Source: an uncultured Nannocystaceae bacterium (GTDB lineage: Bacteria > Myxococcota_A > Bradymonadia > UBA7976 > UBA1532). Taken from it: a stretch of 64,000 bases of DNA. Below, one piece after another: positions 38,652 to 63,913 of this stretch (its first letter is position 1; each line of letters begins with the position of its first letter). The stretch is taken from the NCBI GenBank assembly GCA_964402225.1, contig CAYOBQ010000018.1, positions 9,290-73,289 on the forward strand, written 5' to 3'. The translations under genes and the position numbers were made by a program. The notes under the pieces were generated by a model, which was not told where the DNA came from, ran no database searches, and worked only from the letters and a program-made list of their open reading frames with translations.

Positions 38652-41600
38652 GCCTCCGGCTCCGTCGGGGCGAGCCAGGTTGGCGGCCACTGAGATCGGT
38701 CCTCGTACTCGAGCCCCTCGATCTTGGCCCCGAACGTGCGGTCCTCCGGTTCCGTCCAGCACAGGAGCCCGTGGAGCCTCCGCGATCCGGCGTGAATCGT
38801 GATCTCCGGTCGCGTCGCCCCTGCCGACTGTTCGACGGGTGGCAATCGCGGGTGCCCTTCGGCGAGCCGTCCGCCCAGCCCTCCGTCTGGGGTGATGTCG
38901 ACCGCGAAGGCCGCAGCGCAGGTCCCATCGATCTCGAGGTCGAAGCTGCACTCCACGCCTCGGAACCGTGGGTAGGCCCGCTCGCGCGAGAGGTAGCGCA
39001 GGACGCGCCCGGCCCGTATCCGAAGGGCCACGTCGGCGAGGACTCGCAGCGTCGAGACCCGGAGGGACAGCCACGTCTCGCGGTGTGTCTCCCCGATCAC
39101 GAAGACCCCGCCGAGGTGGTTTGTGTAGGCGCCGGGCTCGAGCGTCGGGATCGTGTTCTCGGGGCCTCGTCTGACGCCGATGGGCCCGGTGCTCGGGAGC
39201 AACTCGCCGAAGCGGTCGGTGATATGCGAGAGGACCTTGCGAATCCAGAGATAGGCGTGCTGGCTCGGCCGCGCAGACGCCGCCAGCTCCCGCAACCTCT
39301 CCGGCTCGGCGTCCGGTTCGAGCTCTCGACCTGCGAGCACCGACCACGGCGCGGCCGGCTCCATGCCCGCGCTGAGGTGAGGGTCGAGGGTGTCGTAGTC
39401 TGTGCTCTTGCTGGCGAGCAGCTTTTCCTCCGCCTCGAGATCCGAGACGAGGGTGTCGAGCTTCTTGAAGAGGCCGTCGCACCGGTCGTTGAAGTCCGCG
39501 AGCGCGTCGCTCTTGGAGCCCACCCACCTGCACAGCGGAGACAGGTAGTGGCCCTCCAGGAGGGCGCGAAGCTGTGCCTGGTCATCGCCCACCTCGTGTT
39601 CGCAATAGCGCCAGACCCGTTCCAGCATCTCGTCGAACACGCCCTGTCCGAGCCGTCGCCCGACGAGGGCGACGATGCGGGGGCCAAACGGCGGGTTGTC
39701 CAGGTCGTGTAGCTGGCGCTGGATGAGCAGGTGCAACGTGGTCTCGGCCCATACCAGCGCCCGGTCGGCCGCCGAGACGATGCCCTCTGCCCGTCGCAGC
39801 CCCATCGCCTGACCCAACAGGAACTGCAGCTCGAATCGTCGCCACGATGTCGCCCCGGCGCGTCGCCACACCGCGTGGGCGAAGATGTCCTCCAAGAACA
39901 GCGCGCGCTGCCGGTCGAGCCACGCGTGGCGATGGTCGGCCGCACCGAAAGCGCCGATCTCCCGTGCGCACGCGTCGAAAGACGCACGGGTATCGCGGTG
40001 CGCGTCCGGACTCAGCCAGCATCGCAGCAGCCAGTGACCATGCTCGTGGAACAGCACCGTCAGCGTCAGCGGGTTCATCGCCTGAAGTTGAGAGAGACGC
40101 AGCACGGGGATCCGCCCGAGCCCCCGCGTCTCAATGGCCGCGTCGGCGCTGAAGAACGCCGTCATCGCGGCGCTCTTGGGCCGTGGGACGCCCTCCGCCC
40201 GGCGCCGCGTGGCCCAGGTGCGCTCGTCGAGGGCGAAGATCGCTGACGCCACGTTGGTCACCACGCCGATGAGTTGGTTGGTCCCCACCGGCACCTCGCC
40301 GCTCAGCGGCGGAACGCCCCCCATCAGCGGGGAGAACTGAACTCGCTGCTCGAGGGCGTGTTGTCCGTACTCGGTGACCTCCCCGACGAGGGTCGGCAGC
40401 TCGGGTGCGGCGTATCCCTTGGTGTCGGGATAGAAGACGACGCGTCGAACGACCGCCGCGAGATCAGCGAGGTCGACCACCGAGCCGAACATGTCGGGGA
40501 GCGACAGGGTGTCTGCGAGCGCGTTGAGCCAGCCGCGCAGCGCCAGCGCTTCGATGCGCCCGATGCTGCGGGCGCTGAGTCGATCGCGTTCGAAGCGCGC
40601 CTGGCTCGGCGCCTGGTTGTGGCTCAGCGTCGAGTAGCCGTAGCGCCGACCGCGGGGCCCTGCCTTCCGTTGCTCGAGTCCAGTCGTCGGCGTGCGCCCG
40701 AGCAGCGAGGTCACGTCCAGGACATGTCGCGCGTGCTCGAGGTGGGCCCGGGACCAACATGCGAGGGCGACAAGGACCACGAATCCGCGTCGGCCGTCCG
40801 GCACCTCGCAGCGCAACGCGATCGTCGTTCCCAGGGGTCCAGAGGCGTCGCTCACGTCCGCGCGCGTGTCCCCGTGGGCCTCCATCAGTCGATCGGCGAA
40901 CAACTGAACGACATCGCGCACCTCATCGGCGTGTCCCGGCTTGGGGAGCCACTGAATCAACGCACGGACGCGGTCCGAGCCTTCCTCCGCGTGGGAGAAG
41001 GCCTCCTCGACGCGTCCGCCCAGGTCATCGATGAAGGCGGCGCGGTCGTGGTCCTCGGCGTCGTCGTCGTGGGTCGGGTTGCACACCGCCCGGCACACCT
41101 CGGTCGTGGCGCGATGCGCCTCGCCGTCGCCCAGCCACCCGAGCAAGCCGGCGGCGTGCAGCCCCGTGTAGGCGCGTGCCGCGACGACGACGTGGGAGAC
41201 CCCGAGGAGCTGGTCGAGCGCGTCCGCCGTGAATCCCGTCGGGTTGGCGAGCCCGCCTGTTTGGAGCCGGCGGTCGGCGATCCACCGACGGATGATGCCC
41301 CGCGGTACGTAGAGCGGTGAGTCGTCCCCCGACGACCGAAGCGCCTCGCGCAGCCTGCCGTAGACCTCCGGGAGGTGGTGCACCTGAATCGACTCGATGT
41401 CGGCCGCTACGCTCGCGACGGCGTGGGCGGTCGGTCCGCTGATAACCACGACCAACTCCGGCCAGGAGTAGGCGTCGAGCACCACGCAGTGGCAGCCCCG
41501 CACCCGGGCGCGCTCGTAGACCATCGCGGCGGTCGCGGTCTCCAGGGCGTGTCCGCTCGCCGTGGCGATCGCATCTGTGAGCTTGATACAGACGACGCCG

Positions 41601-41971
41601 AGGACCGCGCGATCCGGGTCGGGCTCGTCGGTGAGCAGCGCCCCGATGTCCGCATCGTAGTCCGGCCCCGGAGGTGGCAGGACGGCGCCGTAGAGCATTT
41701 CCTGGGCCGTCGCTCCGCCAGCGCTCGCCATGTAGACGACGGACTCGAGGTCATCGGCGAGATAGAAGGTGGCGCTGTCGTAGATCCCGAACATCAGCGC
41801 GCGCCGCGGGTCGTAGTAGCGGGGATCGAGCGGCTCGGTGCTGATGCGCTCCAGATCCTGGCGATAGAGTCTGACGCTCTCGTTGAAGGCCCACGAGGTG
41901 CCGTTGTCGCGGTCTGGCTGCACGCGATGAAGCGCGACCACGAGGATGGGATGAGCTGGCTGGTGATTCAT
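38648..41971 (-). CDS. Large protein of unknown function (1107 aa). It is the first gene of the KAP NTPase module and contains an HEHGH (HExxH) motif.
   Basis: It is an uninterrupted complex-sequence ORF with no signal peptide and no Walker motif. The motif LFHEHGHWLLRC fits HExxH. Its stop overlaps the KAP start. Confidence 0.75.
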   Translation of the reverse strand: MNHQPAHPILVVALHRVQPDRDNGTSWAFNESVRLYRQDLERISTEPLDPRYYDPRRALMFGIYDSATFYLADDLESVVYMASAGGATAQEMLYGAVLPPPGPDYDADIGALLTDEPDPDRAVLGVVCIKLTDAIATASGHALETATAAMVYERARVRGCHCVVLDAYSWPELVVVISGPTAHAVASVAADIESIQVHHLPEVYGRLREALRSSGDDSPLYVPRGIIRRWIADRRLQTGGLANPTGFTADALDQLLGVSHVVVAARAYTGLHAAGLLGWLGDGEAHRATTEVCRAVCNPTHDDDAEDHDRAAFIDDLGGRVEEAFSHAEEGSDRVRALIQWLPKPGHADEVRDVVQLFADRLMEAHGDTRADVSDASGPLGTTIALRCEVPDGRRGFVVLVALACWSRAHLEHARHVLDVTSLLGRTPTTGLEQRKAGPRGRRYGYSTLSHNQAPSQARFERDRLSARSIGRIEALALRGWLNALADTLSLPDMFGSVVDLADLAAVVRRVVFYPDTKGYAAPELPTLVGEVTEYGQHALEQRVQFSPLMGGVPPLSGEVPVGTNQLIGVVTNVASAIFALDERTWATRRRAEGVPRPKSAAMTAFFSADAAIETRGLGRIPVLRLSQLQAMNPLTLTVLFHEHGHWLLRCWLSPDAHRDTRASFDACAREIGAFGAADHRHAWLDRQRALFLEDIFAHAVWRRAGATSWRRFELQFLLGQAMGLRRAEGIVSAADRALVWAETTLHLLIQRQLHDLDNPPFGPRIVALVGRRLGQGVFDEMLERVWRYCEHEVGDDQAQLRALLEGHYLSPLCRWVGSKSDALADFNDRCDGLFKKLDTLVSDLEAEEKLLASKSTDYDTLDPHLSAGMEPAAPWSVLAGRELEPDAEPERLRELAASARPSQHAYLWIRKVLSHITDRFGELLPSTGPIGVRRGPENTIPTLEPGAYTNHLGGVFVIGETHRETWLSLRVSTLRVLADVALRIRAGRVLRYLSRERAYPRFRGVECSFDLEIDGTCAAAFAVDITPDGGLGGRLAEGHPRLPPVEQSAGATRPEITIHAGSRRLHGLLCWTEPEDRTFGAKIEGLEYEDRSQWPPTWLAPTEPEA

Positions 41972-51914: not shown

Positions 51915-52468
51915 CGGGCCACCTCCCCGCCGCCGAATCCGAGTTGGACCGCTCGGCCGACCGCGTCGCGCAGCGCGGGCAGGCTGAAGACCTCGGGGTC
52001 GGTGGCCACCTCCACGGCCCCGGCGCGGTAGAAGGCGAGGCCCCCGAGATCCCGGGAGACGGTGGGCCCGCCGGTCCCGCGGCGCACGTGGTAGACGCCC
52101 TGGGCCAATCCGACGACGAAGGTGAGCTGGCGGGCCGGATCGACGTCGAGGAAGGCGACGACCTCGTCCCCCTCCTCGAGCCGGGCGTTGCCCGTCACCC
52201 GCATCGAGAGGTCACCGAGGTGTCCGCCGAGCTGCTGCACCACCAGCGTCGTGGGGCCGTCCCCCTCGAGGTAGCGGTGCACGCTCAGGATGGTGCGGGT
52301 GTAGATCTCGCCGCGGGGGCCGCGCGCCGGCACCACGTAGCGGTCGACGACGTCGGCGTGGACGACGAGGCTCGCCTCGGCGGTGAGCTGGGCGACCGTC
52401 AGGCGGGTCGACACCGTCGCCCACGCGGGGCTCGACGCAAAGAGCAGGAGCAGGAGGGCGCGCGGCAT
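51911..52468 (-). CDS. Small secreted hypothetical protein (~185 aa), translationally coupled (ATGA) to the downstream M10 protease gene.
   Basis: The signal peptide is MPRALLLLLFASSPAWA. The body is complex. It may be a chaperone, inhibitor or propeptide-like partner of the protease. Confidence 0.5.
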   Translation of the reverse strand: MPRALLLLLFASSPAWATVSTRLTVAQLTAEASLVVHADVVDRYVVPARGPRGEIYTRTILSVHRYLEGDGPTTLVVQQLGGHLGDLSMRVTGNARLEEGDEVVAFLDVDPARQLTFVVGLAQGVYHVRRGTGGPTVSRDLGGLAFYRAGAVEVATDPEVFSLPALRDAVGRAVQLGFGGGEVAR

Positions 52469-52594
52469 CGGATCTCCCCACCAGTGATCGCGAATCGATC
52501 GGTAGCGAGGGGAAAGCACGGCTCATGCCAGGGCCCAATTGTGCCGATACCGGGAGGTCACGCTAGAGTTGGACGGCACCTCGGGAGGACCAGG

Positions 52595-54856
52595 ATGCGC
52601 GCCGGGCTCTGTATCTTGTTGGTCTGGGCGGGCGGCGCAGTCGCCCAGCCCTTCTCCGAAGACGTCGATCGCGCGGTCGATCGGGGTCTGGCGTGGCTCG
52701 TAGCCAACGGCGCGTTCCAGGACCCCAGCCTCGCCGGGGACGCCGCCGGGGTCGCGGCGTTGGCGATGCTGGAGCGGCGAGAGGGGGAGGCCTTCGCCCC
52801 GGCGGTCGGGTACGACGGGGCGAGCGACGAGGATCGCGGGCGCCTGGACCAGATCTTCGGCCACATCCTGCGGCAAGCCCTGGCGGAGGACTTCTACGCC
52901 TACCGCGACGGGGTCGATCTGATGGCCCTGTCGGTGTACCTGCGCACCGGGGGCGCTCGACGGCTGGACGCGGTCGCCGCGGTGAACGTGGTGGTCGACC
53001 GCGTCGTCGAGAACCAGGGAGAGCACGGCTACTGGACGGGGAGCAACGGGGCCACCCGGGACTCCTCGGCCACCCAGCTCGTCATGGCGGGGCTCGGCGC
53101 GGCCCGGGCGGTCTACGGCGATCCGGAGTTCGCGGACGCGGACCGGCTCGCCACCCTCGACGCGGCCACGGCCCTCGCGCGGGCGGCCTACGCGGCCAAC
53201 GGTCTCGCCGGTGGACTCGACGAGCGGGAGCGAGGGCACGGCTACCAACAGGGCAACCTGCCCTCCCTCCAGCAGACGGCGTCGGGGCTCTGGTGCCAGG
53301 TCATCGGCGGCGCCGATCTCAACGACGACGGGGTCCAGGCGTACCTGCGCTGGCTCTACCACCGCTACAACTACGGGAGCATCGAGGCGGCCGATGGCAG
53401 CCACCGCACCTCGCTGCTCTACTACCTGTGGGCGAGCACCCGGGCCTACACCTTCCTCGACGCGTCCCGCGTGGTCGCGGCGCCGGGGAACCTGCCGCCC
53501 TCGGCGCTGGGGACGCTGCCCGCCGATGCGGCGCCGGCGTATGCGACGCGGTCGCTGCACCGGGTCCCGGAGGACGATCCGCGACCGCCGGCCTTCGGCG
53601 TGGAGGGCGCCGGGTTCTACGCGGAGACCGAGCCCGGTTGGTACTACGACCACGCGTACTCGTTGCTGGCGATCCAGGACGGCGGGGGTCGGTTCGTGCC
53701 GCCGGGCGGGGTGTGGAACGACTTCGCGGGGCAAGCCTACGCGTTGCTCGTCCTCGAGCGGTCGGTGGGGGGCGGCTGCGTGGATCACGACGGGGACCAC
53801 GCGTGCCTGGGGTTCGACAACTGCCCGGAGGTGGCGAACCCGGACCAGGCGGACCGCGATGAGGACGGCTACGGCGACGCGTGCGACGGGTGCCCCGAGG
53901 TCGCTGACGACCAGAGGGACGGGGATCTCGACGGGGCCGGTGACGCCTGCGACGTGTGCCTCGACCTCGCCGACGACCAGGCGGACGGGGATGAGGATGG
54001 CGTGGGCGATGCCTGCGACAACTGCCCGGCGCAGCCGAACCCGGAGCAGGGGGACCGCGACGAGAACGGGGTCGGCGACTTCTGTGACGTGGGCTGTGAG
54101 GACGGGCCCTTCGAGGAGGTGTGCAACCAGCTCGACGACGACTGCGATGGGGCCACCGACGAGGGGCTCGAGGGCTGCGGCTGCGTGGAGGAGGAGATCG
54201 CCTGCGACGGGATCGACGAGGACTGCGACGACGCGGTGGACGAGGGGCTGCACAACGCCTGCGGAGAGTGCGGTCCGTTGCCGGAGGAGATCTGCAACCG
54301 AGGCGACGATGACTGCGACGGCGACATCGACGAGGGGGTCCAAAACGCCTGCGGAGGGTGTGGGGAGGTGCCCGTCGAGGTCTGCAATCGGGAGGACGAC
54401 GACTGCGACGGCGCCACCGACGAGGGGGTCCAAAACGCCTGCGGCGCGTGCGGGGAGCCGCCCATCGAGGTCTGCAACCGGGAGGACGATGACTGCGACG
54501 GGGCCACCGACGAGGGGGTCCAAAACGCCTGCGGTGCGTGCGGCGAGGTGCCCGTCGAGGTCTGCAATCGGGAGGACGACGACTGCGATGGGGCCACCGA
54601 CGAGGGGGTCCACAACGCCTGTGGCGGATGTGGGGCGGTGCCCGTCGAGATCTGCAACGGCGCCGATGACGACTGCGATGGCGAGACCGACGAGGCGGTC
54701 CAAAACGCCTGCGGGGGGTGTGGGGCGGTCCCCGTCGAGATCTGCAACGACGCCGACGACGACTGCGATGGGCGCACCGACGAGGGCGTCCAGAACGACT
54801 GTGGCGCCTGCGGTGCGGCGCCCCTCGAGATCTGCAACGACGCCGACGACGACTGA
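52595..54856 (+). CDS. Secreted protein with an alpha/alpha-toroid (prenyltransferase/terpene-cyclase-like) repeat domain, TSP3-like repeats and tandem MopE Cys-rich repeats. It ends at an in-frame TGA inside a repeat.
   Basis: GGGAGG lies 10 nt before the ATG. The signal is MRAGLCILLVWAGGAVAQP. QNQGEHGYWTGSNGATRDSSATQLVMAGL is toroid-like. DNCPEVANPDQADRDEDGYGDACD is TSP3-like. The unit CNREDDDCDGATDEGVQNACGACGE is repeated. Confidence 0.75.
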   Translation: MRAGLCILLVWAGGAVAQPFSEDVDRAVDRGLAWLVANGAFQDPSLAGDAAGVAALAMLERREGEAFAPAVGYDGASDEDRGRLDQIFGHILRQALAEDFYAYRDGVDLMALSVYLRTGGARRLDAVAAVNVVVDRVVENQGEHGYWTGSNGATRDSSATQLVMAGLGAARAVYGDPEFADADRLATLDAATALARAAYAANGLAGGLDERERGHGYQQGNLPSLQQTASGLWCQVIGGADLNDDGVQAYLRWLYHRYNYGSIEAADGSHRTSLLYYLWASTRAYTFLDASRVVAAPGNLPPSALGTLPADAAPAYATRSLHRVPEDDPRPPAFGVEGAGFYAETEPGWYYDHAYSLLAIQDGGGRFVPPGGVWNDFAGQAYALLVLERSVGGGCVDHDGDHACLGFDNCPEVANPDQADRDEDGYGDACDGCPEVADDQRDGDLDGAGDACDVCLDLADDQADGDEDGVGDACDNCPAQPNPEQGDRDENGVGDFCDVGCEDGPFEEVCNQLDDDCDGATDEGLEGCGCVEEEIACDGIDEDCDDAVDEGLHNACGECGPLPEEICNRGDDDCDGDIDEGVQNACGGCGEVPVEVCNREDDDCDGATDEGVQNACGACGEPPIEVCNREDDDCDGATDEGVQNACGACGEVPVEVCNREDDDCDGATDEGVHNACGGCGAVPVEICNGADDDCDGETDEAVQNACGGCGAVPVEICNDADDDCDGRTDEGVQNDCGACGAAPLEICNDADDD

Positions 54857-54917
54857 GACGGCGCCACCGACGAGGGGGTGCAAAAAGCCTGAGGGGGGTG
54901 AGGGGGGGTGCCCGCCG
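54288..54917 (+). repeat. Seven near-identical 90-nt tandem coding repeats, one MopE unit each. The last is degenerate and carries three TGA codons.
   Basis: The unit gtctgcaaccgggaggacgacgactgcgacggcgccaccgacgagggggtccaaaacgcctgcggcgcgtgcggggag recurs with a 90-nt period. High DNA identity suggests concerted evolution or an assembly hazard. Confidence 0.8.
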
Positions 54918-56188
54918 AGGTCTGCAACGGCCGGGACGACGACTGCGACGGCGCCATCGACGAGATCCACGCGGGGCGCTGCGACACGGAGCGACCGGGG
55001 CTCTGTGCCAATGGCCGCTGGCGCTGCGTGGACGACGAGCGGGTCTGCGTGACGAACAACGAGCCGAGGGCGGAGGTGTGCGACGCGATCGACAACGACT
55101 GCGACGGGGAGACGGACGAGGACACGCCCGGCGCCGGCGAGCCGTGCGTGACCCGAACCCCCGGCGTGTGCTCAGAGGGGGAGCGGCACTGCCTCGGCGG
55201 CGAGATGCGGTGCCGTCGGCACTTGCAGCCGGCGGACGAGGTCTGTGACGGAGAGGACGACGACTGCGACGGCACCATCGACGAGGGTCGACGCAACGCG
55301 TGTGGTCGCTGTGAGGCCCCAGACCCGGAGGTGTGCGACGGGCTCGACAACGATTGCGACACCGTCGTCGATGAGGCGGCGAGCTGCGACGGGGATCGGA
55401 CCTGTCGGTTCGGGCGCTGCCTGGCGCCGTGCGAGGGGGAGGTCTGCCCCGCCGGCGAGCTGTGCGTGGGGGGGCTGTGCGTGCTGCCCTGCGACCTCGT
55501 CGAGTGCGCGCCGGGGGAGCGCTGCGAGTTGGGCGTGTGCATCGACCCCTGCGCCGACGTGAAGTGCGGCCGGGGTGAGTTCTGCGTGGCGGGTGAGTGC
55601 CACGACTCGTGCGAAGACGAGGCGTGCCCGCCGGGGCAGCGCTGCGAGGACGGGGCGTGCGTCCCCGACGCCTGCGCGGACGCGAACTGCGCGGCGGGCG
55701 AGGCCTGCGTGGATGGCGAGTGCGTCGCGAGCTGCGCGCGGATCTCGTGCCCCGCCGACGAGGTCTGTGTCGACGGAGTGTGCGTGTCCAACCCCTGCGA
55801 GGGCCTCGATTGCCCCGAGGATCGGGCCTGCGGGGATGGCGAGTGCGGCGAGCCCTGCGAGGGCGACCCCTGCGCGGCCGTCGTCTGCCCTCGGGGCCAG
55901 GAGTGCACGGTCGTGCTGTGCAGCGGACAATGCCGCTTCGACACCTCCCTCGACGACCCCGAGGTCGTCGATCCGAACGCGCCGGACGGGGGCGGTGACG
56001 GAGACGGGGGCGGGGGCGGGCGACAGGGGCGTGGCGATGGCGGGCTCACCGGTGGCGACGGGGCGTTGGGGGCCAGCGAGTCCTCGAAGGGCCCCGCCAG
56101 CGACAACTGTGACTGCGACACGTCGGGCGCTGCGCCGGGGTTGTTCCTGATGCTGCTCGCTATGCGAAGGCGCCGACCTCCGGTGTGA
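54908..56188 (+). CDS. Same-frame continuation of the 52595 gene. It carries further Cys-rich EGF/MopE-like modules and a MYXO-CTERM tail.
   Basis: It is in frame with 52595..54856 across TGAs at 54854, 54890 and 54899. The C-terminus reads ...SDNCDCDTSGAAPGLFLMLLAMRRRRPPV*, a Cys motif followed by a TM helix and an Arg cluster. Confidence 0.7.
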   Translation: MPAEVCNGRDDDCDGAIDEIHAGRCDTERPGLCANGRWRCVDDERVCVTNNEPRAEVCDAIDNDCDGETDEDTPGAGEPCVTRTPGVCSEGERHCLGGEMRCRRHLQPADEVCDGEDDDCDGTIDEGRRNACGRCEAPDPEVCDGLDNDCDTVVDEAASCDGDRTCRFGRCLAPCEGEVCPAGELCVGGLCVLPCDLVECAPGERCELGVCIDPCADVKCGRGEFCVAGECHDSCEDEACPPGQRCEDGACVPDACADANCAAGEACVDGECVASCARISCPADEVCVDGVCVSNPCEGLDCPEDRACGDGECGEPCEGDPCAAVVCPRGQECTVVLCSGQCRFDTSLDDPEVVDPNAPDGGGDGDGGGGGRQGRGDGGLTGGDGALGASESSKGPASDNCDCDTSGAAPGLFLMLLAMRRRRPPV

Positions 56189-56200
56189 TACTCAGCGCGG

Positions 56201-57667
56201 ATGAGCGAGCTGACGAACCCCTACGCGACCGCCCTCGATGGGCTCGAGATCGACGACCCGGTGGCGGCCTTCTTTCGATTCTGCCGGGAGCGCGAGCGCG
56301 TCCGCGTCTTGCGGGAGACCGGCGCGCCGGCGCCGTGGACGGAGGACCCCATCCTGCAACGGGGGCGCTTCCTGAACGTCTTTCGTGAGGACGACCGGGG
56401 CAGCCGGGCGATCCTGCGCTTCGCCGAGCCGGTGCGCGACGATCTGCCGACGCTGGTCCAAGCGCTCTTCTTCGCGCGGTGGTGTAATCGGCAAGCGACC
56501 CTCGACGTGCTGTCCGCCGACGTGCTGGCCGATCCCGCGCGCTTGCGGCGGGTCCTCGAGACCGAGGTTCCGCAGCCTTGGTGCAACGTCACGGCCTACC
56601 CCGTCGAGCCCGTCTGCTGGGAAGGGACGCTCCACTCCCGAATCGAGACCGCCACCGAGCTCTTCTTCGAGAATCGGGGCTTCCTGCGCGACGCGATCCT
56701 CAGTGGCGAAGGGAGCGTCGTTCGAGCCACCGCGGCGGTGAACGCGGGGCTCGGCATGCGCAACGACTTCCCCATCTTCATGGCCGTGATGGATCTGGCC
56801 TGGTTCCGCCCCGACGTGGTGGATCCGGCGAGCCCGGTGCCCACCGGCATCGGCGCGGTGGCCTTCCTCGACCGCCTGCAGCGGCACCTGGGTCTCGAGG
56901 ACCACCACGAGACGTGCGCGCGGATGATCGCGCTGGCAGAGGTACATTGGCCCGAGGCGCGACGCCGGTTTCAGCCGATCGACATCGAGTACCTCGCCTG
57001 CGAGTGCAGGAAGTACTTCAGCTACGTGAATGGCACGAAGGCCTTCGAGGGCAAGAACGTCTTCCGCCCTGGAGAGTCCGCCCAGCTCGTCTTTGATGTG
57101 CCCGCAGACGCGGTCCCAACCGCGGGGACGCCCACCGGAGTCCACGTCGTCGCGGGGGGGCCCTGCTCGGGGAAGACCACGCTCCTCGAGGCGCTGGCGG
57201 AGGCGGGGCATCGTGTCGAGTACGAGACCGCGGAGCGGGTCCTGAAGGCCGGGATCGACCGTGGCCGCTCCGCCGACGCGCTGCGGGCGGATCCGGTCGA
57301 GTGGCAACGGACCCTGCTCGAACAGGACTTCGCGCTCTTCGACGGGCTGCCCACCGACGCGTGCGTCTTCACCGACACGTCGTTTGTCGAGACCCTCGTC
57401 TTCGGCGCCCGCGCGGGGATCACGATCGGCCCCAACGTCGAGGCCTGGCTTCGGCGCAAGCGTTACGCGACGGTCTTCTTCCTCGATCCGCTGCGCTACG
57501 AGCGCAGCGCCGTGCGGGTGGAGTCGCAACGGACGGCCGCGCGGATCAGCGACGAAGTGCGCGCGGCCTATCGACGCTACGGCTACGAGTTGGTCGTCGT
57601 CCCCGCGATGCCCGTCGCCGAGCGGTTGGCCTTCATCCAGTCGATCGTGGGCGACACGCTCGACTGA
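56201..57667 (+). CDS. Two-domain protein. The N-terminal ~320 aa resemble, from memory, the aGPT-Pplase 'DNA base hypermodification' family. The C-terminal part is a NadR/AAA_28-like P-loop kinase domain.
   Basis: The N-terminal block is FFRFCRERERVRVLRETGAPAPWTEDPILQRGRFLNVFREDDRGSRAIL. The C-terminus reads HVVAGGPCSGKTTLLEALAEAGHRVEYETAERVL...ATVFFLDPL (Walker A GxxxxGKT, Walker B hhhhD). Confidence 0.7.
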   Translation: MSELTNPYATALDGLEIDDPVAAFFRFCRERERVRVLRETGAPAPWTEDPILQRGRFLNVFREDDRGSRAILRFAEPVRDDLPTLVQALFFARWCNRQATLDVLSADVLADPARLRRVLETEVPQPWCNVTAYPVEPVCWEGTLHSRIETATELFFENRGFLRDAILSGEGSVVRATAAVNAGLGMRNDFPIFMAVMDLAWFRPDVVDPASPVPTGIGAVAFLDRLQRHLGLEDHHETCARMIALAEVHWPEARRRFQPIDIEYLACECRKYFSYVNGTKAFEGKNVFRPGESAQLVFDVPADAVPTAGTPTGVHVVAGGPCSGKTTLLEALAEAGHRVEYETAERVLKAGIDRGRSADALRADPVEWQRTLLEQDFALFDGLPTDACVFTDTSFVETLVFGARAGITIGPNVEAWLRRKRYATVFFLDPLRYERSAVRVESQRTAARISDEVRAAYRRYGYELVVVPAMPVAERLAFIQSIVGDTLD

Positions 57668-57694
57668 GTCGACCGGTGATGCGAACGTCTCCCG

Positions 57695-60600
57695 GTGCGC
57701 CTCGCCGCGTTCGAGCTCGAGACCCCTATCGCCAGCGGCGGCATGGGCGAGGTCTGGCGTGGGCGCCATCTCGACACCGGGGTGCCCGTCGCCATCAAGC
57801 TGCTGACCGAGCGGTTGGCGCGGGAGCCACGGCTCGTGCGGGCCTTTCGGGACGAGGTGCGGGCGATGGCCGCGCTGGACCACCCGGGCGTGGTGCTGGT
57901 CCACGACTACGGGCAGGTCCCGGAGGAGACGGCGGCCCGGTCTGAGGGTCAGTTCGTCGCGGGATCGCCCTACCTCGTGATGGAGTTCGTCGAGGGTGGC
58001 CCCAAGGCCCCGGGATCGTTGCGGAACTGGGCGGAGCTGTGCGCGGCGCTCACGGCGCTCACCGACGCGCTGGCCCACGCCCATGCCCGGGGGGTGGTCC
58101 ACCGGGACCTCAAGCCGGCCAACGTGCTCTGGAGCGCCACCGGCATCAAGCTGACTGACTTCGGGATCGCCCATGCGCTGCGCGGGGCCACCGAGCCCGG
58201 GGGCGAGGAGGGGCTCCTGGGGACGCCGGCCTACATGGCGCCGGAGCAATGCTGGGGGGACTGGCGGGATCTTGGGCCATGGACCGATCTCTACGCCCTG
58301 GGCTGCCTCGCCTACTCCTTGGCGACGGGGGGCCCGCCCTTCGACGCCGAGTCCCCCTTCGACATCCTGGACCAGCACCTGCGCGCGGCGCCGCCGCCCT
58401 TCGAGCCACGGTTCTCCGTCCCCGCCGGCTTCGAGGTCTGGCTCGACAGGCTGCTGCGAAAGAAGCCCTACGAGCGCTTCCAGCGGGCGGCGGACGCGGC
58501 GTGGGCGCTACAGCGACTGAGCCACGTGGACGACGAGCCCTCCGAGCCGTCGGTCGCGACCACGCTCGAGCCCGACACGATCCTGGCGGACATCGAGATC
58601 GTGCCCCGCGGCACGGAGGGTCCGCCGCCGGTGGTCGAGGGGGGGGCCGGGGCGCTGCCCGAGTCGGCGCGTCCTCCGCCCCCCACCGACTGGCGGCTCG
58701 CGCGGGAGACGGCGAGCACGCTCAACCGGATGAGCCTCGGGCTCTACGGCCTACGGACGCTGCGGCTGGTCGGACGCGAGTCGGAGCGCGAGGCGCTGTG
58801 GCGCGCGCTGCGCACCGTGCACGCGGAGCGTAGCTGTCGGGTGGTGGTGTTGCGCGGCGCGACCGGCGTCGGCAAGTCGAAGCTCGCGGACTGGCTCTGC
58901 GAGCGGGCCCACGAGCTGGGCGCCGCGACTCCGCTGCGGGTGGCGCACGCCCGCGACGGGGCCGCCTCCGCCGGGCTCACGGCCACGCTTCGACGCCACT
59001 TCAGCGCCCATGGCCTCTCCCGTGCGGAGCTGCGGACGCGGCTGAGACGGGTGCTCGAGCGCGATCCGACGGCTGAGGTGGAGGAGCCGGAGGCGCTGGC
59101 GGGGTTCCTGGCCCCCGCCACGGAGGAGGAGGAGGCCGCCGGTGAGCCCGTCGTCCGCTTCTCGAACCCCGCCGAGTGGCACCTGTTGGTCGCGCGGCAC
59201 CTGACGCGGCTGTCGCGGGAGCGGCCGGTGCTGCTGTGGCTGGACGACGCGGAGTGGGGTCTCGAGACGCTGCTCTTCGCGCGCCAGCTCGTGGAGTGGG
59301 ACAGCGCGCCGGTGCTGTTGGTCGTGAGCGCCGGGGAGGGCGCGCTGGCGGAGCGAGAGGCCGAGGCCCACGCGATCGACGCGCTCGCGCGCACCCGCGG
59401 CGCGTTGACCTTGGATTTGAAGGCCCTGCCCAGCCACGACCACGCGCGGCTCGTCCGCGCGCTGCTCGATATGGACGACGCCCTCGCGACGCGAGTCCAG
59501 CGACGCACCGCCGGCAACCCCCTCTACGCCGTGCAGCTCGTGCGAAGCTGGGTGCAAAACGGGCTGCTCGTGCCGGGGCCCAACGGGTTCTGCCTGGCGG
59601 AGGGCGCGACCATCGATCTGCCCACCGACCTGCACGAGGTCTGGTCTGCCCGGGTCATGCGGGTGCTCGCGGACCGGTCGGCGGACGACGAGTTGGCCGT
59701 CGAGCTGGCGGCGACGCTGGGGGTTGATGTCGACGACGACGAGTGGCTGGGCGCATGCGCCGCGGCGGGGGTCCGACCCTCGCCCTCGCTGCGTGACGAG
59801 CTCTTCCGCGCGCGCATCGTGCGACGGGGCTCCGGTGGCCGCTGGGTCTTCGGCCACGCGATGTTGCGGGAGAGCCTCGAACGACGCGCCCGCGACGGAG
59901 GACGGCTCGCGGCCCATCATCAGGCCTGCGCGCGCATGCTGGCGCGGCGCGGTGGCGTCCCGGAGCGACGGGGGCACCACCTCCTCGCCGCCGGTGCGGT
60001 CGACGCCGCGTTGACCGCCTTCGCGGAGGGGGCGAGGCGCCACCTCGCGCGCGGCGAGTTCGCGATGGCCGAGCAGATTCTGGGCGAATGGCGGGACGCC
60101 CAGGCGAAGCTCGGCCCGAACCGGCAGATGGGGATGGGGGTGCTGCTCGAGGCGTGGCTCGCCAACGAGCGCGGGGAGCTCGACGTCGCGCGGATGCTCG
60201 CCGAGGACGCTGTACGGCACGCGCGAGCGGAGTCGCGGCCGGAGGTGGAGGGGCGCGGCCTGATGCGCCTGGGCCGGATCGACTTCGAGGCCGGCCGGAT
60301 GGACCCCGCCCGGGACGCCCTCGCCCAGGCCCGATGCGTCCTGGCACCGCTGGAGCGCCCGGACCTGATGGGCGAGTGCCTGCGCCGGACTGGGCACGTG
60401 CTCACCGCCATCGGGGAGCACCTGCGCGCCGACGAGGTCTACCAGGCGGCGGTCCGAGCCTACGAGGCCGCGGGGAACGCCGACGCCGCGGCCTACGTCC
60501 TGCTGGACCGGGCGATGCTCGCCAAGCAGATGGGGCGGCTGGAGCACGCGGCGGGCCTCATCCGCGCGGCGCGTCGCGGTCTCGAGGGCGCCTCACGCCT

Positions 60601-61129
60601 CGAGACCGCGAACCTGGTCCACGACCTGGGCGAGGTCGAGCGGCTGCGCGGGCGCCTCGATGAGGCCGTGCGCTGCTACCGCGAGGCTCTCGTCGTGTAC
60701 GACGAGGTGGGATCGATGTACGGCAGCTACGTGCGGATGAACCTCGGGCTCACCCTCCAGGCGCGGGGGCAGTACGCCGCCGCCGCCGACTTGATCTGCG
60801 AGGCGCTCCCGGAGGTCGAGCGCCAGGGTCGGCGGGTCCTGGTGGCCGCCGCCCACGTCTTCCTCTTGCCGTGCTACGCCGCCGCCGGTGACTGGGCGGC
60901 CTGGGACCGCCACGCCGAGATCGGCTTCGACACCCTGGATGAGGTGGGGGTCTTCGAGGTCGACTTCGCCCGCACCGCACAGCTCGGAGCCGAGCTCGCC
61001 ACCGCGGCGGGCCAGCCCGAGCGCGCCCGCCGCGCGTGGCAAGCAGCCCTCGCGCAATGGCAGGGCCTGCACCGAGACGAGCGCGCCGCCGTCGCCGCCG
61101 CCGGCCTGCGCGGCTGCGCGCCTTCCTGA
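57695..61129 (+). CDS. Ser/Thr protein kinase fused to an AAA/STAND ATPase and TPR-like C-terminal repeats (1144 aa).
   Basis: The kinase blocks are GGMGEVWRG, VAIK, HRDLKPANVL, DFGIA and APE. Walker A is VVVLRGATGVGKSKLA and Walker B is VLLWLDDAEW. A helical-repeat tail follows. It starts 27 nt after the previous gene. Confidence 0.9.
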   Translation: MRLAAFELETPIASGGMGEVWRGRHLDTGVPVAIKLLTERLAREPRLVRAFRDEVRAMAALDHPGVVLVHDYGQVPEETAARSEGQFVAGSPYLVMEFVEGGPKAPGSLRNWAELCAALTALTDALAHAHARGVVHRDLKPANVLWSATGIKLTDFGIAHALRGATEPGGEEGLLGTPAYMAPEQCWGDWRDLGPWTDLYALGCLAYSLATGGPPFDAESPFDILDQHLRAAPPPFEPRFSVPAGFEVWLDRLLRKKPYERFQRAADAAWALQRLSHVDDEPSEPSVATTLEPDTILADIEIVPRGTEGPPPVVEGGAGALPESARPPPPTDWRLARETASTLNRMSLGLYGLRTLRLVGRESEREALWRALRTVHAERSCRVVVLRGATGVGKSKLADWLCERAHELGAATPLRVAHARDGAASAGLTATLRRHFSAHGLSRAELRTRLRRVLERDPTAEVEEPEALAGFLAPATEEEEAAGEPVVRFSNPAEWHLLVARHLTRLSRERPVLLWLDDAEWGLETLLFARQLVEWDSAPVLLVVSAGEGALAEREAEAHAIDALARTRGALTLDLKALPSHDHARLVRALLDMDDALATRVQRRTAGNPLYAVQLVRSWVQNGLLVPGPNGFCLAEGATIDLPTDLHEVWSARVMRVLADRSADDELAVELAATLGVDVDDDEWLGACAAAGVRPSPSLRDELFRARIVRRGSGGRWVFGHAMLRESLERRARDGGRLAAHHQACARMLARRGGVPERRGHHLLAAGAVDAALTAFAEGARRHLARGEFAMAEQILGEWRDAQAKLGPNRQMGMGVLLEAWLANERGELDVARMLAEDAVRHARAESRPEVEGRGLMRLGRIDFEAGRMDPARDALAQARCVLAPLERPDLMGECLRRTGHVLTAIGEHLRADEVYQAAVRAYEAAGNADAAAYVLLDRAMLAKQMGRLEHAAGLIRAARRGLEGASRLETANLVHDLGEVERLRGRLDEAVRCYREALVVYDEVGSMYGSYVRMNLGLTLQARGQYAAAADLICEALPEVERQGRRVLVAAAHVFLLPCYAAAGDWAAWDRHAEIGFDTLDEVGVFEVDFARTAQLGAELATAAGQPERARRAWQAALAQWQGLHRDERAAVAAAGLRGCAPS

Positions 61130-61237: not shown

Positions 61238-62107
61238 ATGCGGTATCTGACTCTCATCTCGGTCCTGGCGCTCAGCGGCTGCGTCGTCGACGAAAGCGCG
61301 CGGGGCCCGTCGTGCGCGGGCGAATCCGTTGTGCAGTCCGGCCTCGAGTTCTGCGTCATCATCGAGAAGGGCTTCTTGATGGCGGTGTGCCCCCCGGAGG
61401 CCCCCGAGCGACACGAGTTCGACGACGCGCTCGTCTGCGCGCCGGCGGAGGCGGACGCCGAGGACGCCGCCGTGGCGCGGGCTGAGGCGGTCGCGCCCGA
61501 GGGCCGGCCGGACGGGGCGCCGCCGATCAGTCCCGACGCCTGGCCGCCACCCTTCAATGGCTTGACCCGACACGACGCTTGCAGCTCCCCATTCCCCGAG
61601 GGCCCGCCGCCGTTGCCGATGACCAGAATGGTGGACGGTCGGCCCCGCTTCGACGAGTGGCGGGACCTGGACTGCGATGCGCTACGCCCGGACGAGCGCG
61701 GGCTCGGAGCGCCGTGTGGAGGTCCTGACGATGCCGAGTGCGAGCATATCTGCCTTCGGGGTCGCCCTGGGGGGCGCGGCGTGTGTACCTATGGAGACAT
61801 CGACATCTGGTGCGATGGAGAGGGCGAGGTGGTGAGCTACTGGGACGGTGATTGTTGGATGTGCATGCCTTCGGCTCACCACGCGATGGCGTGTTGTCTC
61901 GAGCTCGAGGGCTTCGACTGTCGTGCCTGGCCCTTCCCCTCGGATGGCCGCCCAGGGACACCGTGCGCGATTCACGAGGACTGCGAGCCCGGGCTCGTGT
62001 GTGGCGCCCACCGTGGTTCGGGCTACGGGATCTGCCAGTGCCCCGAGCTCGACGATCCGGACCTCGCTCCCGCCGCCGAAGGCCAGTGCCTTGATGCCCC
62101 CGGCTGA
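61238..62107 (+). CDS. Cys-rich lipoprotein (289 aa).
   Basis: The N-terminus MRYLTLISVLALSGC|VVDE is a lipobox. There is a strong SD. The mature part has many Cys, Asp and Gly residues. Confidence 0.65.
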   Translation: MRYLTLISVLALSGCVVDESARGPSCAGESVVQSGLEFCVIIEKGFLMAVCPPEAPERHEFDDALVCAPAEADAEDAAVARAEAVAPEGRPDGAPPISPDAWPPPFNGLTRHDACSSPFPEGPPPLPMTRMVDGRPRFDEWRDLDCDALRPDERGLGAPCGGPDDAECEHICLRGRPGGRGVCTYGDIDIWCDGEGEVVSYWDGDCWMCMPSAHHAMACCLELEGFDCRAWPFPSDGRPGTPCAIHEDCEPGLVCGAHRGSGYGICQCPELDDPDLAPAAEGQCLDAPG

Positions 62108-62846
62108 TCGCGAGCTCGTCGACCGGGTGGTCTTCTCGCTGCTGCTCCCGGCGGCGCGGATCGCCCAGCGGTACGGGCTGCCGCTGCGCGCCCTCACCGA
62201 GTCCTCGAAGCTCGCGGGCTTCCACCAGGCGCGGGGCCAGGGGCTCAAGCTGCGGGAGATCGTGGACCGGCTCGGCGTGAGCATGAGCGCGGCGGCGCGG
62301 CTGTCGAAGCGGCTGAAGCACAACTTCCTGCGGCCCGAGATCGAGCATGAGCTGCCGTGCCGAATCGAGTTCGCGCTATGGCCGGGGCCGCTGGGGGAGG
62401 CGCGCCTTGCTCAAGCGCTCCCCGATGTCGAGCCGGCGCTCATCGTCGAGACGCTCGAGGGGCTCGCCGAGGAGGGCAGCGTCGAGCGCGTAGGGGGACG
62501 CACCGTGACCTGGCGCTTGCTGCGCGCCGTCGACCGCCGCGTCGCCCCGGACCTCTACGCGCGCATCGATGGGCTCAATTCGCTGTGTGGGGTCCTGGCC
62601 GACGCGGTCTATGCCCGCTTCTTCCGTGACGAGCCCACGGCGTTTGCGCGCAGCCTGATGCTGCGGATCCGCCGGGAGGACGTCGAGACGCTCGAGCGCT
62701 TCTACGAGGACGAGCTCTGGCCGTTGCTCGCCCGGCTCGACGAGGCCGCCGAGGCTCACGACGACACCATCGAGCTGGGCTTTGGCCTCATGTGGGCGCC
62801 CCACGAGAGGCTCCGCCGCGACACGCCCCCGGCCGACCCGGAGTAG
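62094..62846 (+). CDS. Putative HTH-containing regulator, ~250 aa.
   Basis: The start is MPPADRELVDRV.... KLREIVDRLGVSMSAAARLSKRL looks like a helix-turn-helix. The ORF-track start at 61848 is an extension that overlaps the previous gene. Confidence 0.5.
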   Translation: MPPADRELVDRVVFSLLLPAARIAQRYGLPLRALTESSKLAGFHQARGQGLKLREIVDRLGVSMSAAARLSKRLKHNFLRPEIEHELPCRIEFALWPGPLGEARLAQALPDVEPALIVETLEGLAEEGSVERVGGRTVTWRLLRAVDRRVAPDLYARIDGLNSLCGVLADAVYARFFRDEPTAFARSLMLRIRREDVETLERFYEDELWPLLARLDEAAEAHDDTIELGFGLMWAPHERLRRDTPPADPE

Positions 62847-62923: not shown

Positions 62924-63913
62924 TCAGGGAGACGGGTACATCGCGTCGACGCGGTCGCGCAGGAGCTCTTGCCAGTCGGTCGGGTTCGTCGAGCGGGTGA
63001 GCGTGATCGGGCTCGCCAGATCGATGGTGCTCGTCGCCGCGAGGTCGCCGAAACGAGTGGCCTCGTAGTGCCCGGCGGTGTCGGCTCGGATCTCGATCGT
63101 CCCCGTCGCGCTGGTCAGCGCGACCACCGCGTTGCTCGGGCCGTCTTGTTCGTACTTCGCGAAGGTCGCGGCGCCGACGAGATCGGGCAGGTGGTGCTGC
63201 GCCGTTGGATCCGAAGAGACGAGGACGTAGCGCGCCGAGAGGCGGTTGAGCCGCTCCCACTGCGTGCCGTTGCCGCTGCCGTGGTGCGCGGTCTTGAGCA
63301 CCCTGCAGGGGGTGTTGAGCATGCCCTCGGCGTCGTAGGCAGCCCAGTTCTCCATCTGCGCGTCGGCGGCGAAGACCATCGAGAAGCTGCCCCACGTCAG
63401 GCGCGAGATGATCGAGAGGTGGTTGATGTCGAGCATGCTCGCGTCCTCGAGGTCGCTCGTCAGCCGGTTGGGGGGCCCCAGCAGCTCGAGGTAGAGCGCG
63501 CTCGGATCGATCGCACCGGCGGCGACCGCGCCCTCCGGGTAGATGCGCTGGTAGCCGGCGACGAAGCGCACCGGGATGTCCTGAGCCTCGATGGTGTTCA
63601 CCAGCGTGGCGTAGCTGGGGGAGACCAGCGAGTGCGCGTTCCAGAACGGGGCCAGGGTGACGGAGTCGACGGTGTAGTCCGCGAGCAGCGAGCCGGCGGC
63701 GCTGTAGTGGTCGTAGTGGGGGTGGGTGATGACGAGCTCTTCGATGTGACCGCCAGGCGGCAGGCCGAGGTCTTGGAGTAGCGGTCGCAGCTTGTTGGGC
63801 TTGACGGCGTCGATGACCATGATGGTGCCGCCGGGGGCCACCACCACGGCGGTGTCCGCTTGCCGCACGGCCAATACATAGATGTGTAGGTCTCCGTCGC
63901 CAGCGACGCTCAT
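62924..63913 (-). CDS. MBL-fold metallo-hydrolase.
   Basis: VITHPHYDHYSAAG is the HxHxDH zinc motif. A C-terminal His is present (TAHHGSGNG). Confidence 0.8.
   Translation of the reverse strand: MSVAGDGDLHIYVLAVRQADTAVVVAPGGTIMVIDAVKPNKLRPLLQDLGLPPGGHIEELVITHPHYDHYSAAGSLLADYTVDSVTLAPFWNAHSLVSPSYATLVNTIEAQDIPVRFVAGYQRIYPEGAVAAGAIDPSALYLELLGPPNRLTSDLEDASMLDINHLSIISRLTWGSFSMVFAADAQMENWAAYDAEGMLNTPCRVLKTAHHGSGNGTQWERLNRLSARYVLVSSDPTAQHHLPDLVGAATFAKYEQDGPSNAVVALTSATGTIEIRADTAGHYEATRFGDLAATSTIDLASPITLTRSTNPTDWQELLRDRVDAMYPSP

Follow-up and report, generated by a model that had tools for sequence, protein, structure and literature searches.

A cellular sister clade of phage aGPT-Pplase clade 1 proteins, fused to a P-loop kinase domain, with a possible housekeeping role

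In the stretch of DNA analysed here (64,000 nucleotides, "the window"), one gene encodes a 488-aa protein that joins an N-terminal PF18723 domain to a C-terminal P-loop kinase domain. The protein is typical of a large and strongly conserved cellular family that is as yet uncharacterised. Until now, enzymes of thymidine hypermodification have been studied in phages only, and the finding points to a cellular sister clade of the clade-1 proteins of those pathways, a clade not accompanied by the other phage pathway genes. We consider it about an even call that the protein is a two-step enzyme with a housekeeping role rather than one in hypermodification or immunity.

Domain architecture of the 488-aa protein

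The gene and its two domains are located as follows:

56201..57667, + strand: gene for the 488-aa two-domain protein (PF18723 and PF13521), from ORF, Pfam, homologues and AF2
56201..57070, + strand: N-terminal all-alpha domain, residues 1-290, PF18723, from Pfam, phrog_2396, AF2 and Foldseek
57146..57625, + strand: P-loop kinase domain, residues 316-475, PF13521 AAA_28, NadR ribosylnicotinamide-kinase-like, from Pfam, TIGR01526 and Foldseek
57155..57178, + strand: Walker A motif G319-G-P-C-S-G-K-T326, (nearly) invariant columns in the homologue alignment

The open reading frame starts with ATG, has a GC3 of 0.90 and contains the peptides quoted in the original prediction; alignments of homologues begin at residue 1-6 of its product. 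The full-length AF2 model has a pLDDT of 88.3 and a pTM of 0.84, and the Pfam matches of this protein and of the downstream gene product are far beyond chance.

The boundary of the N-domain at residue 290 was set from a split-gene relative (L131, below). PF18723 is matched with E 6.1e-19 (score 68.9 bits; Pfam gathering threshold 25), the best stretch being residues 22-104, and positions 5-88 of the HMM are covered in the 488-aa protein and 4-273 of 281 in the close relatives P0121 and P0122. PF18723 was the sole match when the N-terminal 312 aa were scanned alone (Pfam, E<=10); neither PF18724 (AADT, clade 2) nor aGPT-Pplase clade 3 was found even at this threshold. The domain also matches phrog_2396 (E 1.5e-21), and its own AF2 model has a pLDDT of 88.9. 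The current Pfam name of PF18723, HMUDK_hel, treats it as a helical accessory of a kinase; its earlier name was aGPT-Pplase clade 1. That the two are the same is supported by the phage Sonora protein CPT_Sonora_042 ('alpha-glutamyl/putrescinyl thymine pyrophosphorylase'), which matches PF18723 over the whole profile (E 5e-52), and by the SN1 genome paper, which has 'aGPT-Pplase1' in the same position, adjoining a kinase and Nmad5. The original prediction was thus right to place the domain in the aGPT-Pplase superfamily, in which it belongs to clade 1, and the annotation that it cited, 'putative DNA base hypermodification protein', is given in NCBI to at least one member of PF18723, gene 3 of E. 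coli DS-4. The pyrophosphorylase activity that it proposed is upheld as to family membership but not as to enzyme, the characterised transferase being clade 2.

A sequence-profile search of the PDB returned no solved relative of the N-domain. Foldseek against BFVD matched it to clade-1 and clade-2 phage proteins with probability 1.00 and TM 0.55-0.66, the partners at that probability being SP10 gp186, PhiW-14, phiRSL1, Pplase1 and AADT proteins.

The C-terminal domain matches nearly the whole PF13521 AAA_28 profile (positions 3-164 of 164, E 2.1e-26), which agrees with the predicted NadR/AAA_28-type kinase. A second motif of the D-T-S/D-T-D type was recognised by inspection. The NadR equivalog TIGR01526 is matched weakly, in its kinase part (14.5 bits, with the cut-off at 341), and Foldseek against the PDB returned adenylate, shikimate, NadR, thymidylate and deoxynucleoside kinases (probability 1.00, E about 1e-3). 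The protein shares PF13521, Walker A and the second motif with the NadR RNK domain and COG3911 ('predicted ATPase'), and NadR structures are among its best fold matches; however, the NMN adenylyltransferase and HTH domains of NadR are absent, and the domain to which the kinase is fused has no relation to NAD metabolism. The suggestion that this domain belongs with the phage 5-hmdU DNA kinases is not supported: PF18748, the family of those kinases, is absent among its Pfam matches at E<=0.1, and tblastn searches with the kinases of phages Sonora and Ab18 found P-loop-level matches only (E about 2) in the window and in 83 related genomic loci. The AAA_28 kinase family is known for small-molecule substrates (NadR RNK), not DNA.

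Distribution of fused, split and stand-alone forms

The predicted fusion is conserved in relatives. The best 120 of 1414 database matches are all about 487 aa long, contain both domains and are 56-73% identical to the window protein, and the full-length form occurs in 15 genomic loci, in MAGs labelled Myxococcota, Planctomycetota, Rhodothermales, Hydrogenedens, Chthoniobacterales and others. In a split version (L131/L132), a 294-aa PF18723 gene and a 195-aa AAA_28 gene stand in the same order, 3 nt apart, and encode proteins 67% and 59% identical to the respective halves of the window protein. Identity above 50% across MAGs of at least eight phylum-level groups indicates very strong constraint on the cellular clade.

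The N-domain also stands alone. Some 65 loci encode it with no kinase within 8 kb, as do most marine lineages; streamlined marine bacteria with genomes of about 1 Mb carry it as a 290-aa protein amid housekeeping genes. The Actinomarina gene lies 5 nt after carB-pyrF-pyrD-PRTase, with a small PRTase and rpiB as flanking genes, the Marinimicrobia gene comes after lptF/G, and elsewhere the gene lies in varied non-defence contexts. Given these kinase-less forms, the kinase step may not be obligatory. A conserved link to an AlkD-like DNA_alkylation gene, found near the gene in two unrelated loci, was rejected, two loci being too few.

In a tree, the cellular sequences group mostly by lineage and lie apart from the phage clade on a long branch. 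A search of viral contigs for close relatives, as a test for a phage auxiliary gene, returned only partial segments of at most 50% identity. The phage clade-1 proteins (M6 gp55, ViI gp160, PhiW-14 C9DG43, Sonora gp042 and Ab18 ORF13) belong to the same Pfam family and have the same fold, but are 22-30% identical to the cellular N-domain, and their genes sit in hypermodification clusters, whereas those of the cellular clade do not (0/83 loci). They too have a P-loop kinase as partner, as the original prediction stated for phages, although the partner kinase family differs: in Sonora and Ab18 the gene immediately upstream of PF18723 encodes a kinase, which scores above the PF18748 cut-off in Sonora and matches PF18748 weakly in Ab18. 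SP10 gp186, the best viral fold match (TMq 0.66, probability 1.00), unites a P-loop kinase and a PF18723-type domain in one polypeptide. It is phage-encoded, acts within the glutamyl-thymidine pathway and has its kinase at the N-terminus, whereas the kinase of the window protein is C-terminal; the two fusions are likely independent. The pairing of kinase and PF18723 arose several times independently.

A conserved Glu/Cys motif in the N-domain

Three conserved elements of the N-domain stand out:

56375..56398, + strand: N59-V-F-R-E-D-D-R66, an invariant and probably mobile loop (invariant columns, low pLDDT)
56840..56857, + strand: P214-T-G-I-G-A219, a helix-hairpin-helix-like hairpin (conservation, inspection, fold prediction in the literature)
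56987..57013, + strand: E263-Y-L-A-C267-E268-C-R-K271, a candidate catalytic Glu/Cys motif (conservation, by-eye match to AADT)

The N-domain has the family-wide invariant residues R31, W46, D49, F57, R62, D65, G218, E263, C267, E268 and K271. Eleven catalytic-looking positions (R56, R62, D65, R93, G216, G218, A219, E263, C267, E268 and K271) do not vary in any of the 80 cellular N-domains and recur in the phage members. The HhH reading of P214-A219, which includes three of them, was made by inspection and from the glycosylase-like HhH fold predicted in the literature. Residues 59-65 have a pLDDT below 50 in the full-length model, which suggests that the N59-R66 loop is probably mobile.

The AADT enzymes (PF18724; M6 gp51 and ViI gp247) are the only enzymes of the superfamily whose mechanism has been proven; a Cys and a neighbouring Glu are essential to it, and it proceeds by attack on C6 and formation of an exocyclic methylene. 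They have no sequence-level match to the window protein, but their fold is related (probability 1.00, TM 0.57-0.61) and they carry a Glu-x3-Cys motif at what appears to be an equivalent C-terminal helix. The E263-K271 motif aligns by eye with the AADT motif E-T-I-L-C-K-W-K, and the two appear to resemble each other on inspection and by fold similarity; an hhalign comparison of the PF18723 alignment with a shallow two-sequence AADT alignment was not significant (E 0.09). The window protein shows no sign of the amino-acid co-substrate of AADT.

These observations bear on whether the N-domain is catalytic. If it were a non-catalytic helical module that binds substrate or DNA, the protein would be a nucleoside or nucleotide kinase only. 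The Pfam name and the NCBI name ('nucleotide kinase domain-containing protein') fit such a role, SP10 gp186, with its PF18723-type domain, is listed as a 5-hmdU DNA kinase, and M6 gp55 was dispensable for the pathway in vitro. However, conservation is higher in the N-domain (60-71% identity) than in the kinase domain (48-66%), the N-domain occurs without a kinase in the loci described above, and it has an invariant Glu/Cys/Glu/Lys cluster, common to the phage members, that is like the essential dyad of AADT. We therefore think it unlikely, while granting it a real chance, that the protein is a kinase alone.

A second alternative takes the glycosylase likeness of the N-domain at face value: in a Qng1-type nucleotide salvage, the kinase would make the 5'-monophosphate of a (modified) nucleoside, and the N-domain would split its N-glycosidic bond to free the base and ribose-5-phosphate. 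The top fold matches of the N-domain in the PDB are indeed the queuine salvage enzyme DUF2419/Qng1 and the AGOG glycosylase (probability 0.2-0.47), the kinase is of the NadR ribosylnicotinamide-kinase type, and the Actinomarina gene is flanked by the small PRTase and rpiB. These PDB matches fall short of significance (E about 0.7, TM about 0.3), though, the significant structural relatives are phage C5-modifying enzymes, and the PRTase/rpiB context is confined to one lineage, so that we consider this salvage route improbable.

Genomic context

The neighbouring features are:

54908..56188, + strand: Cys-rich MopE-repeat secreted protein, upstream neighbour across a 12-nt gap (context only)
57668..57694, no strand assigned: 27-nt spacer to the STPK-STAND gene, no terminator-like or promoter-like site
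57695..61129, + strand: Ser/Thr kinase, AAA_16 (STAND-type) and TPR gene, 1144 aa, GTG start, from Pfam, NCBIfam and PADLOC

A promoter and terminator scan around the gene returned no site, and an Rfam search of the window and nine related loci for a riboswitch that might hint at the substrate gave no match; no neighbour gene or riboswitch points to the substrate.

The original prediction coupled the fusion gene to the downstream gene as an immune or signalling module. The arrangement itself was as described, with the 27-nt gap and Pkinase (residues 7-262), AAA_16 (357-522) and TPR_12 (971-1038) domains confirmed by Pfam. The coupling was not borne out: an STPK-STAND neighbour is present at 0/83 related loci, in none of four further contexts, each of them different, and not beside the nearest distinct relative (72% identity), and the gene was found solely on contigs that encode the identical 488-aa protein. 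It is a lineage-specific neighbour outside any conserved unit. Such STPK fusions are numerous in myxobacterial genomes.

No hmdU-generating enzyme was found nearby either. Searches by tblastn for a TS-like hydroxymethylase, AADT, Nmad5 and a phage-type 5-hmdU kinase found none in the window or the 83 loci, whereas a thymidylate-synthase-like gene lies near 30/37 viral loci. Deliberate hypermodification or immunity is unlikely because there is no such nearby hmdU-making enzyme and the neighbours are housekeeping genes. A chromosomal thymidine-hypermodification enzyme that acts on the DNA of the cell itself or on foreign DNA and is coupled to the STPK-STAND sensor can draw on homology to the proteins of phage hypermodification clusters, on the short gap, uninterrupted by a terminator-like site, and on a PF18723 gene in the validated E. 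coli system DS-4/NTTI, where it adjoins kinase and TIR genes. Against this stand the missing neighbour and pathway genes (PF18748 included), the lack of a PF18724 match and the presence of the family in genomes of about 1 Mb beside pyr and lpt genes, and we judge such a module very unlikely.

DS-4 'NTTI' (DefensePredictor) resembles the window locus in having a cellular PF18723 gene next to a small P-loop kinase gene. It differs in its thymidylate-synthase-like, TIR and Nmad2 genes, the gene set of an accessory island; at the window locus a TS-like gene was not found (tblastn), and Pfam scans of 13 neighbouring ORFs showed no TIR or Nmad domain and no defence island, which does not support the proposed immune setting. 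A defence reading from PADLOC was rejected, as only the generic kinase domain of the STPK-STAND gene matches PD-T4-6 and mad6; the 488-aa protein has no specific match (P-loop noise, E>=0.005). That the gene is an anti-phage gene which, like DS-4, depletes or corrupts phage hmdU nucleotides or DNA is hardly credible: PF18723 does occur in a validated defence operon and hmdU phages are common, but the gene is conserved, mostly lineage-grouped and solitary amid housekeeping neighbours, and no TIR effector accompanies it.

Proposed function

In the two-step enzyme that we favour, the kinase domain would transfer phosphate from ATP to a hydroxyl of a pyrimidine-type substrate; by analogy this would be 5-hmU, in a nucleotide or in DNA, with its 5-hydroxymethyl as the acceptor. 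The N-domain would hold the (poly)nucleotide through its HhH-like hairpin, and the invariant Glu-x3-Cys-Glu motif would attack C6 of the pyrimidine and expel the phosphate; the exocyclic methylene might then be resolved by a nucleophile or a hydride, as in the related clade-2 transferases. The likeliest role would be to repair or salvage, constitutively, a modified pyrimidine that arises adventitiously.

The clade-1 'pyrophosphorylase', for which no activity is on record, was one of two gene classes common to all four hypermodifying phages in a 2018 study. Its cellular clade is kept in streamlined genomes of about 1 Mb and is repeatedly found with a kinase, either fused or adjacent. Its characterisation would give a first function for clade 1 and might uncover new chemistry of pyrimidine repair or salvage in abundant ocean bacteria. 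The immune-type coupling to a STAND kinase is a negative result.

A more specific and speculative version, to which we assign a small chance, is that the cellular clade forms a hitherto unrecognised housekeeping pathway in marine bacteria that handles 5-hydroxymethyluracil, whether from oxidised thymine in their own DNA or from phage or dinoflagellate DNA, by direct-reversal repair or salvage. The hydroxymethyl group would be phosphorylated and the Cys would then mediate replacement or reduction at C5 to give a normal pyrimidine. If so, this could at the same time be the 'hmdU to thymidine' activity that has long been missing in hypermodifying phages.

A PF18723-kinase fusion protein

Both genes that the original prediction had placed 27 nt apart are present in the window (G+C ~72%), and the codon-position G+C of each is typical of a real gene:

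56201..57667, + strand: 488-aa ORF, GC3 0.90
57695..61129, + strand: 1144-aa STPK-STAND ORF, GC3 0.92

The downstream protein contains Pkinase (residues 7-262), AAA_16 (357-522) and TPR domains. In the 488-aa protein, the predicted C-terminal NadR/AAA_28-type P-loop kinase was confirmed by a Pfam match to PF13521 across residues 316-475 (E 2.1e-26), while a Pfam scan of residues 1-312 alone (E<=10) returned nothing besides PF18723. The earlier description of this N-terminal domain as “aGPT-Pplase / putative DNA base hypermodification protein” was essentially correct, as it is the older name of PF18723 (HMUDK_hel, formerly aGPT-Pplase clade 1 or Pplase1). BFVD entries matching our model of the N-domain bear both names, and the PF18723 protein of E. 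coli DS-4 is called “putative DNA base hypermodification protein” by NCBI. CPT_Sonora_042, annotated “alpha-glutamyl/putrescinyl thymine pyrophosphorylase”, covers the whole PF18723 profile (E 5e-52), and its paralogue CPT_Sonora_039 matches PF18724, “Amino acid:DNA transferase” (AADT, formerly clade 2). The SN1 genome note places an “aGPT-Pplase1” next to a nucleotide kinase and Nmad5, in a position equivalent to that of the Sonora PF18723 gene.

The characterised enzymes of the superfamily belong to clade 2: the AADTs M6 gp51 and ViI gp247 use a Cys to attack C6 of 5-phosphomethyl-dU, and a neighbouring Glu is essential. The clade 1 protein M6 gp55 is dispensable for the in vitro reaction, and the literature searched assigns no activity to clade 1. 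One member of the representative library, P0252 (1087 aa), is a family-A DNA polymerase (3'-5' exonuclease and polymerase) with a C-terminal PF18723 domain, an architecture which suggests that its (probably phage) branch acts on DNA at the replication fork.

Kinases are paired with PF18723 in other systems as well. In phages Sonora and Ab18, three genes come in the order P-loop kinase, PF18723, thymidylate-synthase-like (TS-like), the first two directly adjacent. The kinase of Sonora scores above the cut-off of PF18748 (phage 5-hmdU DNA kinase), and that of Ab18 matches it only weakly. SP10 gp186, whose fold is the closest viral match to that of the N-domain model (TMq 0.66, probability 1.00), is a natural fusion of an N-terminal kinase and a C-terminal Pplase1. 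The parallel originally drawn with the phage 5-hmdU DNA kinase is not supported: the window kinase is a NadR ribosylnicotinamide-kinase-like AAA_28 protein of a different P-loop family, it does not match PF18748, and the phage kinases resemble it at the P-loop only. The domain order is also reversed relative to the phage arrangement, with PF18723 first and the kinase second. For these two reasons the window fusion is probably an independent joining of analogous parts, which argues that the kinase and PF18723 act on a common substrate.

Fused, stand-alone and split forms

A database search with the window protein returned 1414 matches, and our statements on architecture rest on the best 120 of them. 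All 120 are ~480-515 aa long, contain PF18723 and PF13521 and are 56-73% identical to the window protein; at source they are named “predicted ATPase”, “nucleotide kinase domain-containing protein” or “ATP-binding protein”. The fusion is thus kept in relatives and defines a conserved family rather than a one-off.

Searches of one-genome-per-species contigs found relatives encoded in 167 stretches, of which we analyzed the best 80. Full-length relatives are present in 15, whose source MAGs are labelled Myxococcota, Planctomycetota, Rhodothermales, Hydrogenedens, Chthoniobacterales and others. In the other ~65, the match (55-73% identity) is confined to residues 1-290 and the ORF is a stand-alone protein of ~285-300 aa, with no AAA_28 homologue within 8 kb of its gene. 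The source lineages of these loci are marine (Marinimicrobia, Actinomarina/OCS155, Verrucomicrobia, Victivallales, Nitrospina and the like), and their contigs reach 729 kb in length. Searching with the kinase half returned stand-alone AAA_28 proteins (46-73% identity). Two loci have a split form:

L131:2954-5348 and L132:3194-5588: 294-aa PF18723 gene, 3 nt, 195-aa AAA_28 gene

The split genes keep the order of the fusion and are 67% (PF18723) and 59% (AAA_28) identical to the halves of the window protein. A similar pair of gene models, PF18723 then AAA_28 (the latter 61% identical to the window kinase half), occurs in an assembly of the green alga Cymbomonas tetramitiformis (L134, LGRX02035853.1). 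The gene ranges suggest introns, and the pair represents either transfer into a eukaryote or bacterial contamination.

As a side observation, an AlkD-like DNA_alkylation repair gene (PF08713) precedes the split pair on the same strand in L131 and L132. Another lies ~3 kb from the fused gene in L088, L089 and L006, which makes only two independent cases, too few for a conserved link.

The cellular proteins are separate from the phage clades. In a neighbour-joining tree, all cellular sequences form one tight group on a long branch from the phage members, with the fused forms mostly together, and clustering a library at 50% identity leaves the entire cellular clade with 2 or 3 full-length clusters, the other strong matches being fragments. 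Viral contigs yielded no close relatives: their 37 matches are all partial segments with <=50% identity. Both Pfam families and the kinase-Pplase pairing are already known, and the architecture is on record in databases; our literature search found nothing on the cellular clade itself, nor on how extremely conserved it is, that it is present in streamlined marine genomes or that it occurs independently of hydroxymethylases.

Predicted structure and invariant residues

The AF2 model of the full-length protein has a pLDDT of 88.3 and a pTM of 0.84, and that of the N-domain, which is all-alpha, a pLDDT of 88.9. The C-domain model resembles adenylate, shikimate, NadR, thymidylate and deoxynucleoside kinases. 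Phage proteins of both clade 1 and clade 2 match the N-domain model at a probability of 1.00.

The 80 cellular N-domains compared have 57 invariant positions out of 300, among them E263, C267, E268, K271, R56, R62, D65 and R93 and the hairpin residues G216, G218 and A219; all of these are shared with two phage clade-1 proteins. E263-x3-C267 can be aligned by eye to the AADT motif E-T-I-L-C-K-W-K, but because hhalign gave no significant match to an AADT alignment of two sequences, we only infer that the two are counterparts. The invariant loop NVFREDDR (N59-R66, window 56375-56398) has a pLDDT <50 in the full-length model but scores better when the N-domain is modelled alone; it may act as a mobile lid that covers the predicted active site.

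We propose that the kinase domain would activate a hydroxyl of the substrate, after which the N-domain would carry out Cys-dependent chemistry on a pyrimidine, at C5/C6, either in DNA or in a nucleotide. The role would be a housekeeping one, either in repair or in salvage. Alternatively, the protein could be a kinase carrying a non-catalytic helical module; against this, it is the N-domain that is better conserved (60-71% identity vs 48-66% for the kinase domain). The N-domain could also be a Qng1-like nucleotide glycosidase: its model has no significant PDB neighbours, and the weak ones of highest probability are the glycosylase-like Qng1/DUF2419 and AGOG, in line with the HhH glycosylase-like fold predicted in the literature.

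Genomic context

The phage pathway is absent from the cellular loci. The original prediction proposed looking for an hmdU-generating enzyme in the genome, and no TS-like hydroxymethylase was found in the window or in any of 83 related loci; AADT, Nmad5 and a phage-type kinase were likewise absent from all of them. In the viral loci (L090-L126), a TS-like gene lies <=6 kb from the PF18723 gene in 30 of 37, AADT is present in 4 and a BLAST-detectable phage kinase in 8. The hydroxymethylase is therefore a closer associate of clade 1 than the known transferase is.

A role as a defence gene would have a precedent in E. coli DS-4/NTTI, a validated defence operon which combines TS-like, adenylate-kinase-like, PF18723, TIR and Nmad2 proteins. 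The window has no defence genes around the 488-aa gene, and the PADLOC matches of the STPK protein are to its generic kinase domain. The hypermodification-plus-sensor module first proposed is an unlikely alternative, and its immune coupling is not supported: the identical protein occurs on 11 contigs, presumably of one population, with the STPK-STAND arrangement on all three of those listed, but a STAND neighbour is found in 0 of 83 related loci (three have weak, generic kinase-domain matches, none directly adjacent), four Pfam-annotated homologue neighbourhoods all differ and lack an STPK, and no STPK lies downstream of the gene in the nearest distinct relative (72% identity). The link to the STPK-STAND gene is thus not conserved.

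The window surroundings encode MopE-type Cys-rich secreted proteins and TPR, HEAT, DUF4388, MFS and GT2 proteins, and include the following:

51944-56188, + strand: two large secreted proteins, rich in Cys and carrying Cu-binding_MopE and thrombospondin type 3 repeats, directly upstream of the 488-aa gene (12-nt gap)
38648-41971, - strand: 1107-aa ORF, GC3 0.86, gene-like codon bias, no Pfam match at E<=0.001
61848-62846: possible HTH protein, no link to the 488-aa gene seen
62924-63913, - strand: 329-aa protein, weak metallo-beta-lactamase-fold match (E 5e-5), no link to the 488-aa gene seen

Homologues in L081 and on the contig of P0039 also have MopE-repeat proteins nearby, so this proximity is probably typical of Myxococcota and not a sign of a functional connection. 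Rfam searches of the window and nine loci returned nothing. In Marinimicrobia, lptF/G precede the stand-alone PF18723 gene, and the genes downstream of it, greA and pckA, lie on the other strand. In Actinomarina/OCS155 (L053-L074, e.g. L060:7606-8855), the PF18723 gene begins 5 nt after a 129-aa PRTase-like gene in the order carB, pyrF, pyrD, small PRTase, PF18723, with rpiB next on the opposite strand, a context suggesting a possible pyrimidine or ribose-phosphate link in that lineage only.
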